A stretch of DNA of 64,000 bases from a virus (taxonomy: Duplodnaviria > Caudoviricetes), in the IMG/VR virus record IMGVR_UViG_3300032312_001422, positions 32,001 through 96,000 of that record; one strand, written 5' to 3'. Shown here piece by piece: positions 41,775 through 61,816 of this stretch; the stretch's first letter is position 1; the number at the start of each line of letters is the position of its first letter. Made by a program: the position numbers and the translations under genes. The notes under the pieces are model-generated. The model made no database searches. It was not told the origin of the DNA and worked only from the letters and a program-made list of their open reading frames with translations.

Positions 41775-41907
41775 CATGGGACTATTGGCATTTGCCGTTA
41801 TTTCGGCTCTTATAATTTATCTGTTAATTTCCATCAAAGACTGGACGGAATAACTTTCCTGGCCCAACCCAGGGCATAATAAATAGTGTTACAACCCAAG
41901 GAAGTCT

Positions 41908-43362
41908 ATGTTATTCGAAATCCACGCTGAGCGTAACGCCTCAGACAAAAAAATCTTTTATTATGACAACGAAACCAACACTTTAAAAAGTGAAGATGGT
42001 ACAGTATTTGAGTACCCGCAAATACAGGAACAAAATCAGACACCATTTGTTCCTTTCGATCGCAACCGACCCTTGAAGAAAAGCCGTGCAATACAGTTAT
42101 TGAAGATCCAAATGGGACTCAGTTGTAACTATAGTTGCGATTACTGTAGTCAAAAGTTTGTGGAACGTGCTCCGGAAACTTCAAAGAAAGACATTGATCT
42201 TTTTTTAGAAAAATTCAAAGTGTTAGAGTTTGATGAACAAAAGGGACTCAAAGTAGAGTTTTGGGGCGGAGAGCCATTTGTATATTGGAAAACATTCAAA
42301 CCCTTGGCTGAAGCTATTCTGGAAAAATTTTCCCATTGGAAACGCAAGCCACAGTTCAGTGTGATCACCAATGGCAGCATACTCAATGAGGAAATCATTG
42401 ACTGGCTTATGAAGCTGAACTTTGTTGTGAGCATCAGTCACGACGGTCCGGGACAACATGTGCGTGGACCCGATCCTTTTGCAGATCCTGAAAAGAAAAA
42501 ACAGATCCTGGGATTTTATCGTCAAATGAGTCGACTCAAAAAGGGCTTTAGTTTTAATCCCATGCTGAATGCTCAAAACATCAGTCGTAAACGGATCTAT
42601 GATTGGTTTGTGGATTTCACTGGAGATCCCAATGTAGTCCTAGGCGAGGGCGGAATCGTAGACAGCTATGATGCGGATGGCATGCAAAACAGCCTGCAAA
42701 CCAAACAGCAACATTTTGAATTTAGACGTACAGCCTTTGCTGATATCTTTAGCACACAAGGGCAAATTGGATTCAAGATGCAGTTGGACAAAATTGATGG
42801 CTTTACACAAAGCGTGTTGAGTCATGCTGATTCCAAGTATCTGGGACAAAAATGTGGCATGGACAATGAAAACACCTTGGCCATTGACCTACGTGGTAAT
42901 GTGATGACTTGTCAAAACGTCAGCAGTCTTGAAACTGGCAAAAACGGTGAAAGCCACTTGGGTGGTAATTTAGATGACTATGACAACGTGGCCATCAAGA
43001 CAAGTACACATTGGTCGAATCGTGCCGAATGCCCCAAGTGCCCTGTGTTGCATCTCTGTAAAGGTGCCTGCATGTTCCTGGACAAAGAGTTTTGGGATGT
43101 CAGTTGCGCCAACTCCTATTCAGACAATGTGGCCCTGTTTGCCTTGGCCATAGAAAAAATAACGGGTTATATTCCCACCTTGATCAAACAAGATGAATTG
43201 CCTTTGGAACGTCAAGACATATTTGGTACCATATACCAGCACACAGAAACTGAAAAGAAACGCATTATACCTATCAAAATTGTCAGTGAAGTAGTTGGAG
43301 AAATTGAAGGTGTTGAAGTGTATGGGCAAAGTCGTGTAGAATCAGTCATAAATACTCAATAA
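41908..43362 (+). CDS. Radical SAM/SPASM-domain maturase-like enzyme
   Basis: CNYSCDYC, FWGGEP, ISHDG, KCG...DLRGNVMTCQ...CPKCPVLHLCKGAC...C. Confidence 0.9.
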   Translation: MLFEIHAERNASDKKIFYYDNETNTLKSEDGTVFEYPQIQEQNQTPFVPFDRNRPLKKSRAIQLLKIQMGLSCNYSCDYCSQKFVERAPETSKKDIDLFLEKFKVLEFDEQKGLKVEFWGGEPFVYWKTFKPLAEAILEKFSHWKRKPQFSVITNGSILNEEIIDWLMKLNFVVSISHDGPGQHVRGPDPFADPEKKKQILGFYRQMSRLKKGFSFNPMLNAQNISRKRIYDWFVDFTGDPNVVLGEGGIVDSYDADGMQNSLQTKQQHFEFRRTAFADIFSTQGQIGFKMQLDKIDGFTQSVLSHADSKYLGQKCGMDNENTLAIDLRGNVMTCQNVSSLETGKNGESHLGGNLDDYDNVAIKTSTHWSNRAECPKCPVLHLCKGACMFLDKEFWDVSCANSYSDNVALFALAIEKITGYIPTLIKQDELPLERQDIFGTIYQHTETEKKRIIPIKIVSEVVGEIEGVEVYGQSRVESVINTQ

Positions 43363-43374
43363 AGTGAATTTACT

Positions 43375-44283
43375 ATGACACTACCAGCATCAGGACAAAT
43401 TGCAATCAGCGACGTCAGCGCCAAAATTGGGCAGGCCGCCACTTTCTCCACAAGTTTAAATTTCCTCAATGGATTAATTCGTAGTGATCAACGCCCGGCC
43501 ACACCTAGCATGACTGCTTTTTACAACAAAAACTATTTTCAAAATACTGCCGACGGTGCCAACTGTGCCAACGGCAACTGCACAGCAAATTGCAACTGCG
43601 GCAATATTCAATGTACTAATTGTGTCATAACTGGCACGATTAATTGTGGCAATTGTGACAGTCAGGCCTGGTTGCAGAATAACTGTAACTGTGCCTGTAC
43701 ATATAACTGTACCAGTGCAAACACAAGTTATGCGTGTAACTGTGCCTGTAACTGTAGTAAAATTATCTGCGCCAAGTTATACGACTTTGGCCTAATGGAT
43801 CAAAATATTTGGGCAGCTGACCAAGCATACGGTCAGTGGTTGCGTAAGAAAGACCGTAGAGTATATCGCGGTTATGTTCGCTGGGCACGTATTGTTACTG
43901 CTTGGATGGACGGCAAAGGTCCCAACTACATGCCCTGGATCTTGGATGCTGACCGTCGTAGTGAGGCACAAAAGGCCGCTATCACAGACATGGCTATCAA
44001 GATCGGCACACCATGGTCAGAGCATATGGCCTACTTGATGGGTGCGTTGCCCGAAGACAACGTCCAAGGACGTATTCTAATGGAAATAGGTAAACCTATT
44101 TGCCGATTTGTCGATAGCTTACCACGTGTTGGTAAAAAGTCACGTCGCCATCGCTTACCAACATTATACACAATGTGGGCTTTGTTTTACTTGAGTTACT
44201 ACACTTCTTTGGTAGGTGCTCGAACTCATTTGTTTTTTAAAAGTTTTAGTTTTGACAAACTAAGACAAAGGACAATAAAATGA
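43375..44283 (+). CDS. Cys/Asn-rich virion-type protein; candidate radical SAM substrate
   Basis: MTLPASGQIAISD...FYNK N-terminus; 16 Cys in residues 63-127; separate C-terminal helical domain. Confidence 0.75.
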   Translation: MTLPASGQIAISDVSAKIGQAATFSTSLNFLNGLIRSDQRPATPSMTAFYNKNYFQNTADGANCANGNCTANCNCGNIQCTNCVITGTINCGNCDSQAWLQNNCNCACTYNCTSANTSYACNCACNCSKIICAKLYDFGLMDQNIWAADQAYGQWLRKKDRRVYRGYVRWARIVTAWMDGKGPNYMPWILDADRRSEAQKAAITDMAIKIGTPWSEHMAYLMGALPEDNVQGRILMEIGKPICRFVDSLPRVGKKSRRHRLPTLYTMWALFYLSYYTSLVGARTHLFFKSFSFDKLRQRTIK

Positions 44284-44918
44284 CCACGGTCATTGATGAA
44301 AGTATTTTTTCCAGTAGTGTGAAACAATCATTATGGGAATGTCCGGTGTGGCACCAAAAAACTCCGTTTACAGAAACGTTTAATAAAGAGTTGTTGAAAG
44401 AAATGTACGAGATTGCTAGTACGTTTGACGAATCCTCAGGGAAAGAATCCCTATTAGATTATGATCGTCCCTGTATGCAAGAATTAATTGACTTTAAGAC
44501 TGAGGTAATCACCAATGTTGTCAATCAATACATGCCAGACACGCAAGAAGCCCGGTTTGTTGTATCGGGTGCTTGGCTTAATGTAAACACAGCCGGAGAA
44601 CGAATCGAACTTCATGCACACCCCGATTCGTCTATAGCTTGTAGTTATTACATACAAGGACCAGATGTTGGCGGTGAGTTTTACTATGTTGATACCGGCA
44701 GAGTTGGCGAGCACCGAACAGAAATTAAAACAATAACCCCTAAAAATGGCGACATGATATTTTTGCCATCGTATGTGCTACACGGAGTCAAGATGAATCT
44801 GGGGAGATGTAGAGTAAACCTGACTACAGATTTTAAACATGACCTTACCAAAGACAGCAAGGATCAGTTAGTGTTGAAAAGTTTTATAAACAGTATGCTA
44901 AGGATTAAGGATTTATGA
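44280..44918 (+). CDS. Putative 2OG-Fe(II) oxygenase (TIGR02466-like)
   Basis: WLNVN...HAH.DS...YY...G...IFLPSYVLHGV. Confidence 0.8.
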   Translation: MTTVIDESIFSSSVKQSLWECPVWHQKTPFTETFNKELLKEMYEIASTFDESSGKESLLDYDRPCMQELIDFKTEVITNVVNQYMPDTQEARFVVSGAWLNVNTAGERIELHAHPDSSIACSYYIQGPDVGGEFYYVDTGRVGEHRTEIKTITPKNGDMIFLPSYVLHGVKMNLGRCRVNLTTDFKHDLTKDSKDQLVLKSFINSMLRIKDL

Positions 44919-45313
44919 GCGATATTATTGTAGGCAAGCAACCAGTAGATTTTGATGCTGAAGATTACAACCGATATGTCAAGTATTTTTTAGACACTGA
45001 AGTTGGCGGTATTGTGTTCAATCTCACCAAGGATGAACAAGACAGCTTCTTTGAGATGTGTTATCGATATCCTGTCATATTAGACAAAGTGTTTTTGCTA
45101 CCCGGTGATCCTTTAATGAATTATATCATGTATGGTAACGAATTTTATGATGCACTCAAAAATCCACATGATGGTATTGACTTTAGTCCAAGCTACATTG
45201 TGGCTCAATATCGAGAGTGGGCTAAGGCACGCAATATACCCGAGCCTGTAGATCAAGTGGCAGTTGAAGGCTTAGATGTCACACCCATGCTGGAATTCCA
45301 AAAACAGCTATGA
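44915..45313 (+). CDS. Hypothetical protein
   Basis: ATGA-coupled within oxygenase cluster. Confidence 0.6.
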   Translation: MSDIIVGKQPVDFDAEDYNRYVKYFLDTEVGGIVFNLTKDEQDSFFEMCYRYPVILDKVFLLPGDPLMNYIMYGNEFYDALKNPHDGIDFSPSYIVAQYREWAKARNIPEPVDQVAVEGLDVTPMLEFQKQL

Positions 45314-45876
45314 ATCGGTACTATACTAAGTTAGATAGTATTAGTCCAAGCCTGTACAACAATTTTGAAAACCTAGGCGAACAACACGTTTGCGGCGGTG
45401 GATGGACTAGATACTACCGCACCAACTTGAGCAGAAATATACTATTGCCAGACCACTTGAAGCAGAGTTTTAATCTAAGCTACATGACATTTATTGGCGA
45501 CAATGCTCATCCACATGTGGATTTAGAGATAGGTTGTAGAATAAACATATATCTGTCTGACAATAAATGCCCAACCAAGTTCTTTAGTGTAAAGTCTGAG
45601 GAATTTACCAAACCCAAACCAGTCACGTGTGTAGGGTGTACAGTAGAAAAGTTCTGTGCTGGAGAGTGCCAGTGCAGTTACAAACTTGATAATCTAATGT
45701 TAGAGGATGAATTCGTAGCCCGCAAACACGACATATACCTGTTAAATATTCGCAAGATACACAGCGTAGAAGGACTCAGTAAAACCAATTACAGAGAAGC
45801 CCTGTCGTTTACCACCGATCTTTCTTATGAAACAGTATACGAATCTTTACAGCAATATGGCGCATTCTCTGTTTAA
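45310..45876 (+). CDS. Putative Fe(II) oxygenase (cupin) with Cys-rich insert
   Basis: PHVD...IHSVE...REALS; CVGC...CAGECQC insert. Confidence 0.55.
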   Translation: MNRYYTKLDSISPSLYNNFENLGEQHVCGGGWTRYYRTNLSRNILLPDHLKQSFNLSYMTFIGDNAHPHVDLEIGCRINIYLSDNKCPTKFFSVKSEEFTKPKPVTCVGCTVEKFCAGECQCSYKLDNLMLEDEFVARKHDIYLLNIRKIHSVEGLSKTNYREALSFTTDLSYETVYESLQQYGAFSV

Positions 45877-46384
45877 AAAACTTGCTGTAGCAGCCAATAT
45901 TGATTTTAAAATTCTAGATAAGAAAATAGAATTTGAGTTAGACTCTGCAGGTCGCCGAATACAATACTCCAACGTATCTTCACGCTACGTAGACAATTTC
46001 ATAGCTGGTCTTGGCCATCACGGAAAGCATTTTTATACAAGTTTTGTCAGCGTAGAAACAAATGTGCCGCCACACACAGACATTGTTGATCGAGTCAACA
46101 TCAACTTCTACATAGAAACAGGTGACTACCAAACTACGTTTTACAGAAGCAATGACAACTCAGCACGATTTACCTATGCAGATCACGGCGATGGTCATGC
46201 GTATCGTATAGAAGAACTAGAGCCTGTGGATAGTTTTGTTGCCCAACCCGGCGATGTGTACATTTTAAATGGTAAAAATATTCACGGAGTTGCCTGTACA
46301 GAGCCTACACCAAGAAAATTTTTGCAAGTCTCTACCAACCAGTTAGAATATGATCAAGTTTTAGAAATTTTGAATCTATGTTAA
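45857..46384 (+). CDS. Putative Fe(II) oxygenase (cupin), paralog of 45310-45876
   Basis: PPHTD...NINFY...IHGV...RKFLQ. Confidence 0.55.
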   Translation: MAHSLFKKLAVAANIDFKILDKKIEFELDSAGRRIQYSNVSSRYVDNFIAGLGHHGKHFYTSFVSVETNVPPHTDIVDRVNINFYIETGDYQTTFYRSNDNSARFTYADHGDGHAYRIEELEPVDSFVAQPGDVYILNGKNIHGVACTEPTPRKFLQVSTNQLEYDQVLEILNLC

Positions 46385-47082
46385 TGTTGATCTATACCAT
46401 TGCAACAATTCACCTGGGCTGTGCAGTGGCTTCGTTGTACATGCATCGGTATGTGATACACAGACAGTATCGTATGACTCCAAGAACAGAAATGGTCATG
46501 AAAGTCATGTATTGGATGTTGTTTGATGTGGTCACTAGAGAGTTTGTGGTACAACATAGAAAGCATCATGAATTCTCAGACACATACAATGATCCTCACA
46601 GTCCGAGATTTGGTTTTTGGTCATTGCTGAGATCTTGTCTGGTTCCAAGCTTCTTTAGATCCTACAAAATAACTGTGTCCGATTCGGAGTATCAGCGATA
46701 CGGTGCCGAGACTGCCACCAACACCGTTATTGATCGACACCCAAGATTGGGAGTTGTATTGTTATTGGTAATAAACATTGTGTTGTTTGGTTGGTTGGGT
46801 ATCATTGCGTGGATCGTCCATTTGTTTGCTGTGAATTTTTTAATAATAACAACAATAACAGTATTTGGGCATAGCATTGGCGGCAGGAACTTTGATCTTG
46901 GCGACTTTACTCGTAATGTTGTTCCTGTTGGCATATTGTGTGTGGGCGAAGAGCTACACAACAATCATCATAAAGATAGCAGGCTGTATAACATGGCTAT
47001 AAATAAAAATGAATTCGATCTAGGATTCTTTTATCTACAACTTTTAAATCGATTTGACTTGGTTCAATTCAAACAAAAATGA
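46378..47082 (+). CDS. Membrane fatty-acid desaturase-like protein
   Basis: His boxes HRYVIH, HRKHH, HNNHH. Confidence 0.85.
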   Translation: MLMLIYTIATIHLGCAVASLYMHRYVIHRQYRMTPRTEMVMKVMYWMLFDVVTREFVVQHRKHHEFSDTYNDPHSPRFGFWSLLRSCLVPSFFRSYKITVSDSEYQRYGAETATNTVIDRHPRLGVVLLLVINIVLFGWLGIIAWIVHLFAVNFLIITTITVFGHSIGGRNFDLGDFTRNVVPVGILCVGEELHNNHHKDSRLYNMAINKNEFDLGFFYLQLLNRFDLVQFKQK

Positions 47083-47678
47083 AAATAACTAAAACAGACA
47101 TGTGGGTGACCCCAGTGTGGGAAATTCAAACCGACTTTGACCAACAGTTCAACAACGAACTGCTGGACGAGCTTGGGCAGTACTGTGATCCCGAATCGGA
47201 TGTGGGCAACTCTAATATCTGGAACTGTGACACGCCACGAGTACAAGAACTAAAAAAATACACTATCAAAGTAGTCAAATCACAAACATACGATTACATA
47301 GCACCAACTGTCAAAGACTTTGAATTCTGGCACGCCCGTGGTTGGTTAAATTATCACAAGACAGGTGAAGGTATTCCCATACACGGACATGGTAGCCCTA
47401 AGATTGCAATGACCTACTATGTCAAGGCTCCCGACAACTGTGGGGATTTGTTACTGATAGATCCTCGCAACGGTTGCGACTGGGATTCAGGCAACGATGG
47501 TGTCAATGGTACCAAGTTTAACAGAATTAAACCAGTCGAAAGCAAACTGGTATTTTTCCCAGGGTTTGTATTACACATGGTCGAACCCAATCAGTCTGAC
47601 CAAGTTAGGGTATCTGTAACCAGCAACATGGGCACATTTGATAAAAGTACTGCTCAAGCATTTAAAAATACACTATAA
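47079..47678 (+). CDS. Putative 2OG-Fe(II) oxygenase (TIGR02466-like)
   Basis: WLNYH...IHGH...YYVK...DPR...VFFPGFVLHMVEPN...RVSV. Confidence 0.8.
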   Translation: MKITKTDMWVTPVWEIQTDFDQQFNNELLDELGQYCDPESDVGNSNIWNCDTPRVQELKKYTIKVVKSQTYDYIAPTVKDFEFWHARGWLNYHKTGEGIPIHGHGSPKIAMTYYVKAPDNCGDLLLIDPRNGCDWDSGNDGVNGTKFNRIKPVESKLVFFPGFVLHMVEPNQSDQVRVSVTSNMGTFDKSTAQAFKNTL

Positions 47679-47687
47679 GGATGTACA

Positions 47688-48479
47688 ATGTCATTCTATG
47701 AAAAATTAGACTTTATCAAATATGATCATGACCGCCTGGTGACCGATGTGCAACAACATGTGTTCAGTCTGGGACAAGCTGTTATACAGGGCGAGGAATA
47801 TGAAACCGATGCCTACAAGGGTTTTGGTGGATGGAGTCTGCAGAGTCAAACCGGAGACTGGCAAGACGGCTGGGAATTTTTTCAAAACGAAGAAGGCACC
47901 ACTATTGAAGAAGTATTCTTTCCCAAGGATGCTAACAATTACACTACCTTAAAATACTTTAATATTGCACATTCTTTAGAGTACAAAAAGCCCACACAGG
48001 GCTATTGCGGTGAGATTGCCGAGGTGATTGATCAAATAGAGGCATTCGGCTTGACACCTAGACGAGCCAGAGTAACCTGTTTAAAAGCTGGTAGCAAAAG
48101 CCTAGTACACAGAGATTGTGGTGAAAACCAATACATGGCACGTATACACATACCCCTGATCACCAATCCTGAGTGTACTTTTACTGCCGAAGGAGAAACC
48201 TTATACATGGAACCCGGTACGGCCTACATGGTCTGGGTAAATGTGTGGCATCAGATTCGCAATGATTCGGAACAAGATCGATATCACATAATTATGGATG
48301 CTTACGATACCAGACATGTCACAGATAAGTTCAAGTACATGGGTGATATTAGCCAGTTGGAAACCTTTGCCAACGAATTGCGGCAACAGGTTGATCAAGC
48401 TGTTGTTACTGCAGATTTGGAACAAAAGTTTGAAACTGAATTGGCAAAATGGCGAACTAAATCCAAGGTTGACACATAA
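47688..48479 (+). CDS. Asp/Asn beta-hydroxylase-like 2OG oxygenase
   Basis: RARVTCL...VHRD...RIHIPLITNP...WHQIRN.S..DRYHII. Confidence 0.8.
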   Translation: MSFYEKLDFIKYDHDRLVTDVQQHVFSLGQAVIQGEEYETDAYKGFGGWSLQSQTGDWQDGWEFFQNEEGTTIEEVFFPKDANNYTTLKYFNIAHSLEYKKPTQGYCGEIAEVIDQIEAFGLTPRRARVTCLKAGSKSLVHRDCGENQYMARIHIPLITNPECTFTAEGETLYMEPGTAYMVWVNVWHQIRNDSEQDRYHIIMDAYDTRHVTDKFKYMGDISQLETFANELRQQVDQAVVTADLEQKFETELAKWRTKSKVDT

Positions 48480-48497
48480 GTTTAATAAGTATATAAT
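48469..48497 (+). promoter_or_regulatory. Consensus sigma70 promoter of tmRNA
   Basis: TTGACA-N17-TATAAT perfect match. Confidence 0.85.
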
Positions 48498-60238: not shown

Positions 60239-61816
60239 ATGAAAGTTAAAAAAATCATAGTCGTAGGCGGCGGAACCGCGGGCTGGCTCAGTGCTGGTTT
60301 TTTGTCGAATCAACTGCCCGGCATAGAAATCACTGTGATACACAGTAAAGAAGTTCCTATCATTGGTGTAGGCGAAACCACAGTACCACAGTTCCGTAAT
60401 CATTTGGAAAAAATGGGCTTACAAGAAGATGTATGGATGCGTGAGTCGGGTAGTACGTTCAAGTACGGAGTTACTTTTGATGGATGGCGTACAGGCACCG
60501 ATACTCGCTGGCACGGCTTTGGTGATTTTATCACAGAAAAAGGTATTAGTCACAGCGTAGACGAATTTGGCAAGCGTGTTAGTTGTGCCAAAGACGACTC
60601 TGTACTAGTAGCTGACTACTGGATTGAGATGCTCAAGCGTGGCATTGTCACAGAAGCGGATTACTATCAATACGCATCAGACACATATCATCTAGTACAA
60701 AATCGTCGTGCTCACAGAGACCTAGCAGGACACCAGTATTCAAGTCGTGTGCCCGGCTATGCTTACAACATCAACGCATTCAAAGTTGGCCAAACTATTC
60801 GAGACAAGGTGGCCTTTCCCAACGGTGTTCGTGCCCTAGAGCGTCATATCGTACGAGTTGATCGTAACGAACGTGAAGAAGTCACAGGCATTGTGGACGA
60901 TAGCGGGGAAACACATACCGCAGACTTGTACATTGACTGTACCGGTTTTAAACGATTGCTAATTGGGCCCGTGGCCAAATGGGTCAGTTACGAAGATCGA
61001 CTACCTTGTAAAAATGCCATTGGCGGTCGTGTAAACTATCAAGGCAAACAAGAAGAATTCTGCGTACCTAACCTGCATGCCACAGCATTCAAGCACGGTT
61101 GGTCTTGGCGTGTTCCCTTGCGTGACGACATGGGTTCGGGTTATGTTTATGATACACGTTATACTACCACCGAACAGGCAATTGAAGAGCTAGGTGCTTA
61201 CTGGCGTAATCTAGGGATGGAGTGGGATCATAAAGTTACCTTAAAATTTGATAATGGTATTTTAGATCGTTCAGCACACCGCAACGTTATTGCTTGTGGC
61301 TTAAGTTCAAACTTCCTGGAACCCCTAGAAGCAACCAGTATCAGTTTCACTACACTTATCAATGAGCTAGTAGTAGCAGTATTGAAGAAACATGACAATC
61401 AATGGGATGACAAAAATGCCGAAGTTATTAGCAGACTTATGCACCGAGAAGTTAAGATCACTGGAGACTTCCTATGGGCACACTATGCCTTGACAGAACG
61501 TAGCGACACAGAGTTCTGGCGTGAGCAAGCTACCAAACGTGAGGAAGCTGTGGACATGGTACACGGATGGTTTGGTCGACATTTTAGCGATATCTATCGT
61601 AGAGAAAAAGACTTTGACCACACACGTTATAACAAGTACGATTGGGCACAGACTATTACTACCATGCGAGCATTTGCGGATTGTCCTACTAGACCTATTA
61701 ACGAAGCATTATTGCCACGTGCAAAACTATGGTATCAACATCGCGATGAAATGGCACGTGGTGTTTTAGACTTGGTGCCAACACACTGGGAATTGATCAA
61801 ATATATCAATAGATAA
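60239..61816 (+). CDS. Flavin-dependent (tryptophan) halogenase family protein
   Basis: GGGTAG, IGVGETT, TFKYG, DCTGF, WSWRVP, FLEPLEATSI. Confidence 0.9.
   Translation: MKVKKIIVVGGGTAGWLSAGFLSNQLPGIEITVIHSKEVPIIGVGETTVPQFRNHLEKMGLQEDVWMRESGSTFKYGVTFDGWRTGTDTRWHGFGDFITEKGISHSVDEFGKRVSCAKDDSVLVADYWIEMLKRGIVTEADYYQYASDTYHLVQNRRAHRDLAGHQYSSRVPGYAYNINAFKVGQTIRDKVAFPNGVRALERHIVRVDRNEREEVTGIVDDSGETHTADLYIDCTGFKRLLIGPVAKWVSYEDRLPCKNAIGGRVNYQGKQEEFCVPNLHATAFKHGWSWRVPLRDDMGSGYVYDTRYTTTEQAIEELGAYWRNLGMEWDHKVTLKFDNGILDRSAHRNVIACGLSSNFLEPLEATSISFTTLINELVVAVLKKHDNQWDDKNAEVISRLMHREVKITGDFLWAHYALTERSDTEFWREQATKREEAVDMVHGWFGRHFSDIYRREKDFDHTRYNKYDWAQTITTMRAFADCPTRPINEALLPRAKLWYQHRDEMARGVLDLVPTHWELIKYINR

Follow-up and report, generated by a model that had tools for sequence, protein, structure and literature searches.

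Radical S-adenosylmethionine (SAM) enzymes of the SPASM type are known as maturases of small secreted peptides and of a few enzyme subunits. Why, then, does a giant freshwater phage encode such an enzyme next to a protein rich in Asn-Cys dipeptides? The gene pair in question lies in a window of 64,000 nucleotides (bases 32001-96000 of the 288.8-kb IMG/VR virus record IMGVR_UViG_3300032312_001422, which has an estimated completeness of 80%). We conclude that the pair probably represents the enzyme and the substrate of a widespread phage system, in which the SPASM enzyme acts on the (Asn/Asp-Cys)n run of a fibre- or adhesin-type protein. As a preliminary description of the window reported, a complete radical SAM/SPASM gene is followed 12 nucleotides later by a second gene on the same strand. 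The two genes and the parts of the second one are listed below in window positions; structures were modeled with AlphaFold2 (AF2), and pLDDT is the predicted local distance difference test score of a model.

41908-43362, plus strand: gene for the radical SAM/SPASM enzyme of 484 residues (PF04055, PHROG 1802, TIGR04085), the proposed maturase
43375-44283, plus strand: gene for the Asn-Cys protein of 302 residues, beginning 12 nucleotides past the enzyme gene
43375-43560, plus strand: N-terminal segment (residues 1-62), conserved among the aligned homologues and, in this subfamily, invariably accompanied by the Asn-Cys run; AF2 pLDDT about 60
43561-43755, plus strand: Asn-Cys run (residues 63-127) with 16 Cys, 16 Asn, and 12 Asn-Cys dipeptides, the proposed modification site
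43756-44139, plus strand: C-terminal domain named KIIC (residues 128-255), all helices in the AF2 model
44155-44247, plus strand: C-terminal aromatic and hydrophobic helix (residues 261-291, AF2), possibly associated with a membrane

The 302-residue protein belongs to no family in Pfam, PHROG, or NCBIfam, and has at least 421 homologues in metagenomes. The numbers of Cys and Asn-Cys dipeptides that had been read in residues 63-127 match the sequence exactly. In an alignment of 24 homologues (A1; 57-87% identity), most Cys of the run and many of the preceding Asn are invariant, so the pattern is selected rather than due to chance. Elsewhere in the 289-kb genome, (X-C)≥3 runs occur in only one other open reading frame (ORF) of the six-frame translation, a Cys-rich frame of 139 residues on the minus strand outside the window (G000:C1:253326-253742) that is probably spurious. 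Four of the aligned homologues (P0019, P0045, P0041, and P0113; 330-388 residues) have a Cys region enlarged by tandem units of 9-11 residues of like type, and the run therefore seems to grow by addition of repeats, in the manner of a solenoid or multi-core substrate.

When 1.84 billion representative proteins were searched by profile for the 302-residue protein, 1054 matches were obtained, and these resolved three modules. The N-terminal segment together with the run (profile positions 1-127) can stand alone in proteins of about 125-135 residues that end after the last Cys (P0150 and P0177), or be followed by a Hint domain (P0139, P0212, P0243, and P0264), the usual Cys-Phe-x-x-Gly start of which directly follows the run. 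The KIIC module (positions 127-270, beginning with Lys-Ile-Ile-Cys) is C-terminal in many Gly-rich or fibre-like proteins of 185-1859 residues that carry no Asn-Cys run, including a 616-residue protein (SynMITS9220M01_028; L001:4669-6519) encoded between fibre genes of Synechococcus phage SynMITS9220M01. In protein P0138 the Hint domain precedes the KIIC domain. This domain could function in assembly or anchoring, or as a removable chaperone; in the window protein its pLDDT per ten-residue block is 73-91 over residues 131-250 and 58 over residues 251-260. Foldseek searches with the model of the 302-residue protein returned only uncharacterised proteins that share the KIIC domain, and an Atlas feature search with the N-terminal 62 residues returned unnamed viral clusters only. 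For the C-terminal helix, the best 19-residue Kyte-Doolittle mean is 0.96, which we judged too low for a clear transmembrane helix, and that assignment was rejected. By eye, the corresponding segment is more hydrophobic in two relatives (P0148 and P0142).

Linkage of the enzyme to Asn-Cys runs

Gene order in relatives, which the preliminary description had proposed as a check, confirmed that the two genes occur together. From IMG/VR, the family alignment retrieved 80 loci (counted without de-replication; substrate identity 44-87%), with the enzyme upstream of the Asn-Cys gene in 79 of them; the lone exception starts at a contig end. One or two desaturase-family genes stand between the enzyme and the Asn-Cys gene at ten viral loci (L014, L018, L033, L048, L051, L054, L058, L059, L061, and L062). 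The other forms of the protein have the same neighbour. The run-and-Hint protein P0212 is directly followed by an enzyme 57% identical to that of the window, with lysis genes beyond it. After the stand-alone protein P0150 (L087) comes the start of the same enzyme, and stand-alone P0177 is encoded in a T4-like contig between a 641-residue Peptidase_S74 fibre and the enzyme, near T4 gp15. In such relatives the N-terminal segment with its run adjoins Peptidase_S74 fibres and T4 gp15, a tail-fibre context. No radical SAM gene neighbours the KIIC proteins that have no run (P0148, P0142, and the cyanophage protein), and the phage collection holds no enzyme homologue in any Synechococcus phage. The enzyme therefore tracks the run and not the domain.

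In the same phage collection, three cultured phages (Ralstonia phage RSP15 and Achromobacter phages JWF and 2-1) have enzymes 40-46% identical to that of the window within their tail-fibre modules. Annotation assigns to the JWF protein gp028 a T4 gp36 fibre domain together with a Hint domain, and an alternating run of six Cys stands just before the Hint start. The side tail fibre of RSP15 (ORF048) has only a short, two-Cys version of the motif at its C-terminal end.

For bacterial genomes an alignment query was needed, as locus scans with single proteins (the L086 and JWF enzymes) returned nothing or only four close relatives. The enzyme alignment detected 80 loci in 185,579 bacterial genomes, and 57 non-redundant loci among them have at least 3 kb of upstream sequence. 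The hosts are mostly Limnohabitans and other Burkholderiales, Rhodobacterales, and Bradyrhizobium; the loci, most of them in prophages, usually have tail and lysis genes on their flanks. In 52 of the 57 loci, an ORF with an (X-Cys)≥3 run precedes the enzyme on the same strand, with the enzyme 0.02-3.7 kb downstream; at a Paraburkholderia locus the gap is 19 nucleotides. In 50 loci the stop codon comes 0-11 residues after the run, and in two the run is followed by a Hint domain. Asn occupies position X in 68% of cases, Asp in 12%, and Ala in 9%, and the last 30 residues of the tails contain 4-11 Cys. Collagen triple-helix repeats, which trimeric phage fibres often carry, were found in three of ten tail carriers tested. 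In some loci (L090, L159, and L169) small genes stand in tandem, two or three to a locus and each with a Cys tail, and the tandem genes of a Bradyrhizobium prophage (72-77 residues) resemble a miniature of the N-terminal segment and run of the window protein.

These proteins also bear on the proposal that the N-terminal segment acts as a leader. It did not hold as a general rule: the same enzyme family accompanies Cys tails on proteins with unrelated N-termini, and since the tails occur on collagen-repeat fibres and on the gp36-like fibre of JWF, the N-terminus is not a universal leader.

A third component is shared by the two groups of phages. In the window it is encoded directly after the Asn-Cys protein.

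44280-44918, plus strand: gene for a PF13759 2-oxoglutarate-Fe(II) oxygenase of 212 residues (Pfam E-value 1.6e-10), the conserved third component of the cassette

Homologues of this oxygenase, and of two downstream window ORFs with no assigned family (orf132 and orf188), are found downstream in most of the 80 viral loci. In the prophage loci, the gene just upstream of the enzyme gives weak PF13759 matches. BLASTP found no link between the window oxygenase and the prophage genes, and profile-profile comparison of the prophage genes with the window PF13759 oxygenases gave a probability of 98.7% (E-value 3e-16). The oxygenase family is present in 60 of 84 loci. As it is conserved in both phage groups, the shared core consists of the enzyme, the protein with the Asn-Cys run, and the oxygenase. 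Fifty prophage loci and RSP15 have, in addition, a family of about 270 residues with an immunoglobulin-like C-terminal part, encoded between the tailed fibre gene and the oxygenase (for example L117:3590-4411 and L002:3314-4129, the latter being RSP15 ORF047; spread over L090-L171). This family has no counterpart among the window genes.

The enzyme and the Asn-Cys gene are thus supported as a real and strongly conserved functional unit, and the proposed pairing of enzyme and substrate is well supported by a linkage that, on sequence comparison, is conserved across unrelated phages. Because about 130 phage and prophage loci have this pairing beside or on tail fibres, it probably serves the chemical modification of a fibre-type protein.

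The enzyme and its expected chemistry

The enzyme belongs to the radical SAM superfamily (PF04055, 39.8 bits with a cut-off of 29.5) and to its SPASM subfamily (TIGR04085, 34.1 bits with a cut-off of 27), and matches phrog_1802 with an E-value of 1.5e-63. Its two cluster-binding regions are the following.

42124-42147, plus strand: CX3CX2C motif for the SAM-binding 4Fe-4S cluster (residues 73-80), invariant in alignments A2 and A3
42853-43107, plus strand: SPASM region (residues 316-400) with seven invariant Cys (316, 335, 375, 378, 384, 388, and 400)

The SPASM Cys are arranged as CX13GX4C at residues 316-335 and CX2CX5CX3C at residues 375-388, with the final Cys at position 400. The best curated maturase family is that of PapB (NF047865), with 85.2 bits against a cut-off of 340 and an alignment that covers the radical SAM core only. 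The QhpD family is the third best NCBIfam match of the enzyme (63.7 bits against 453), while the anSME model TIGR03942 gives 56.6 bits against 349 and the SCIFF family 52.6 bits against 425.

The AF2 model of the enzyme (pLDDT 88, predicted template modeling score 0.88) has no winged-helix, PqqD-like recognition element of the kind found with peptides that are made by the ribosome and modified after translation (RiPPs); residues 1-28 form three beta strands before the core, and no helices. Its best fold matches are anSME, which ranks first, CteB, ChlB, TigE, and SuiB. Among solved structures, the best sequence matches are TigE (entry 8vpo, which a paper on cyclopropylglycine synthases cites), anSME (over nearly the full length), and CteB. 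With anSME and the thioether synthase CteB as its nearest solved relatives, the earlier assignment of the enzyme to the peptide- or protein-modifying SPASM type is supported.

The alignment to anSME separates the two enzymes in the SPASM region, where the second SPASM Cys is followed by an invariant Gln336 in place of Asp and the extra Cys of anSME is missing, leaving seven. In the anSME structures, eight Cys reportedly ligate both auxiliary clusters fully, and the Asp is the proposed base; the CteB structure is said to have an open iron site that binds the substrate Cys. We take seven SPASM Cys to be a trait of thioether-forming enzymes, and the pattern here would leave such an open iron site. 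Given the seven Cys and the Gln in place of Asp, read against these structures, thioether formation would be favoured over formylglycine formation.

Several characterised systems likewise place a SPASM enzyme beside a Cys-rich substrate, namely CteB/CteA (SCIFF, thermocellin), PapB/PapA (freyrasin), and NxxcB/NxxcA (Asn-x-x-Cys beta-thioether). PapB, QhpD, and NxxcB are thioether enzymes that join Cys to carbons of Asp, Asn, or Thr. CteB shares the seven SPASM Cys and is among the best fold and sequence matches of the phage enzyme, and Asn or Asp and Cys, the acceptor-donor pairs in the products of PapB and NxxcB, are the residues conserved in the phage run. In contrast to these three systems, the phage enzyme stays below the family cut-offs and lacks the winged-helix recognition element in its model; the phage substrates are entire proteins, from 72 to more than 600 residues long and in many cases tail fibres, in which the run is C-terminal; the motif is the Asn-Cys dipeptide, not NxxC or CxxxD; and no protease or exporter gene was seen in the phage cassettes. 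QhpD forms Cys-to-Asp/Glu thioethers in QhpC, the gamma subunit of quinohemoprotein amine dehydrogenase, which is kept in a larger assembly; the phage enzyme falls far below the QhpD cut-off, and the phage substrate and its context are unrelated.

By analogy with these systems, the thiolate of a substrate Cys would bind the open iron of the first auxiliary cluster, and the 5'-deoxyadenosyl radical would abstract a hydrogen from a carbon of the neighbouring Asn or Asp. A thioether staple between the Cys sulfur and that carbon would result, of the type present in ranthipeptides, sactipeptides, and QhpC. Judged from the sequence, such a staple is a plausible and the most likely product, and it would fit the conservation of Asn and Asp in the run.

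Several observations weigh against this proposal. No curated NCBIfam maturase family reaches its cut-off with the enzyme, and the thioether families are far below theirs; moreover, neither the nearest solved sequence (8vpo, the cyclopropylglycine synthase entry) nor the nearest fold (anSME) forms thioethers. Known ranthipeptides have NxxC and CxxxD spacing, whereas the Asn and Cys of the phage run are adjacent. The run has an AF2 pLDDT of 30-40 and no confident fold. As to linkage, the tally of viral loci may contain redundant entries, as noted above, and no Asn-Cys run was found within 5 kb at five bacterial loci, those whose enzymes are the most distant (33-39% identity). Finally, the cassette of the window phage is surrounded by oxygenases, a desaturase-family gene, a halogenase, and sugar and metabolic genes, and not by structural genes.

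Three other explanations have to be weighed. The run may be an unmodified tail that binds a metal or an iron-sulfur cluster, for instance on the axis of a trimeric fibre, while the enzyme acts on a glycan, a lipid, or a host molecule. Alternating Cys-x-Cys is known from metallothionein-like metal sites, T4-type fibres and spikes have His-x-His iron sites, and trimeric collagen-repeat fibres are among the tail carriers. The failure of AF2 on the run alone would be expected if metal or partner chains were needed for folding, and desaturase-family and sugar or lipid genes do lie nearby in the window phage. An unmodified tail would leave it unexplained that the enzyme and the run stay paired across unrelated phage types and gene orders while their neighbours change, that Asn and Asp as well as Cys are conserved in the run, and that the enzyme falls into the peptide- or protein-modifying SPASM group; we regard this explanation as unlikely. 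A smaller likelihood still is given to an anSME-like activity, by which Cys of the run would be oxidised to formylglycine and produce a reactive, aldehyde-rich fibre tip. In favour of it, anSMEcpe (PDB 4K36-4K39) is the best fold match of the enzyme and the sole solved structure that aligns over nearly its whole length; it is said to act on proteins without a leader-binding domain, as would the phage enzyme on whole proteins; and the JWF record labels its enzyme as anSME. The distance from the TIGR03942 cut-off, the invariant Gln in place of Asp, and the loss of the eighth, cluster-ligating Cys all argue otherwise, and the substrate lacks the sulfatase motif, Cys/Ser-x-Pro/Ala-x-Arg.

The small Asn-Cys proteins could also give rise to a RiPP-like peptide that is released (for example as a toxin, signal, or exclusion factor), and not be part of the virion. 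The tandem small genes that end in a run, an arrangement frequent in RiPP clusters, and the conserved N-terminal segment followed by a core-like C-terminal run in that subfamily agree with such a role. The same tail, however, terminates long collagen-repeat and gp36-like fibres, its genes lie within tail-fibre modules beside lysis genes, and the examined cassettes gave no sign of a protease or exporter gene. We consider a released peptide the least probable of these explanations, and return below to modification of a fibre-type protein by the SPASM enzyme.

Neighbouring genes and putative promoters

Downstream of the first oxygenase, the window contains further syntenic genes.

44915-48479, plus strand: syntenic genes comprising orf132, orf188, and orf185 (no assigned family) and the three genes below, which have Pfam assignments
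46378-47082, plus strand: gene for a fatty-acid-desaturase-family membrane protein
47079-47678, plus strand: gene for a second PF13759 oxygenase
47688-48479, plus strand: gene for an Asp/Asn beta-hydroxylase-family protein

These genes possibly encode tailoring enzymes, and their link to the cassette is weaker. The fatty-acid-desaturase-family proteins belong to the cassette; a weak desaturase relative (21% identity, E-value 4e-5) is also encoded upstream of the enzyme in a Bradyrhizobium prophage (L159:3480-4211). A second copy of any of the three modules is absent from the 289-kb genome. Genes of the tryptophan-halogenase family were observed at window positions 60239-61816 (phrog_2928) and, in the T4-like contig L172 (L172:8863-10059), two genes downstream of the radical SAM enzyme. 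Just past the Asp/Asn hydroxylase-family gene, positions 48469-48497 of the window contain a 12/12 match to a sigma-70-type promoter (TTGACA, 17 nucleotides, TATAAT).

The preliminary description also assigned a TAAATA late core to each gene of the pair. Both hexamers are present.

41880-41885, plus strand: TAAATA, 23 nucleotides upstream of the ATG of the enzyme gene, a possible T4-type late core
43349-43354, plus strand: TAAATA, 21 nucleotides upstream of the ATG of the second gene and within the end of the enzyme gene

Their reading as late promoters did not stand, as the window shows no excess of the hexamer (45 found, 56 expected). Of the complete T4 late box, TATAAATA, five copies were found with 3.7 expected, and the box is absent at both TAAATA sites, which read AATAAATA and CATAAATA. 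The hexamers are biased by strand (33 on plus, 12 on minus), and by eye about ten of the 33 on the plus strand lie within 40 nucleotides upstream of a start codon, which is suggestive only, since AT-rich intergenic DNA confounds the count. Plus-strand sites include positions 1498, 13861, 15766, 24612, 31261, 34039, 58066, and 60209.

Proposed function and significance

In most relatives, the run forms the extreme C-terminal tail of a tail-fibre-like protein, and the Hint domain, where present, would cleave itself off and expose the tail. The PF13759 oxygenase would probably add a second modification, such as hydroxylation of Asn or Asp. In the window phage, the KIIC domain may serve assembly or anchoring, and a virion location of its Asn-Cys protein is plausible by analogy with the fibre context in other phages.

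A wider proposal, which we advance tentatively and hold to be possible rather than probable, is that in many phages of Proteobacteria and in giant freshwater T4-like phages a dedicated radical SAM enzyme and the oxygenase covalently staple the distal Asn-Cys tip of a receptor-binding fibre or adhesin, with the Hint or KIIC domain removable so as to expose the modified end. If so, it would be the first case in which a virus particle carries a radical, RiPP-type post-translational modification. SPASM maturases with Cys-rich substrates are known; the setting in phage fibre proteins is new. In the literature we found no description of a phage system that combines a radical SAM/SPASM enzyme with Asn-Cys proteins, nor of a SPASM maturase acting on virus particles.

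If phages do cross-link the tips of their host-recognition fibres, this would add a new layer to phage-host recognition and particle stability, and would give enzymology a new substrate motif, (Asn-Cys)n, together with a new maturase family. It would also explain why a PHROG 1802 gene resides in the tail modules of Achromobacter phage JWF and Ralstonia phage RSP15.

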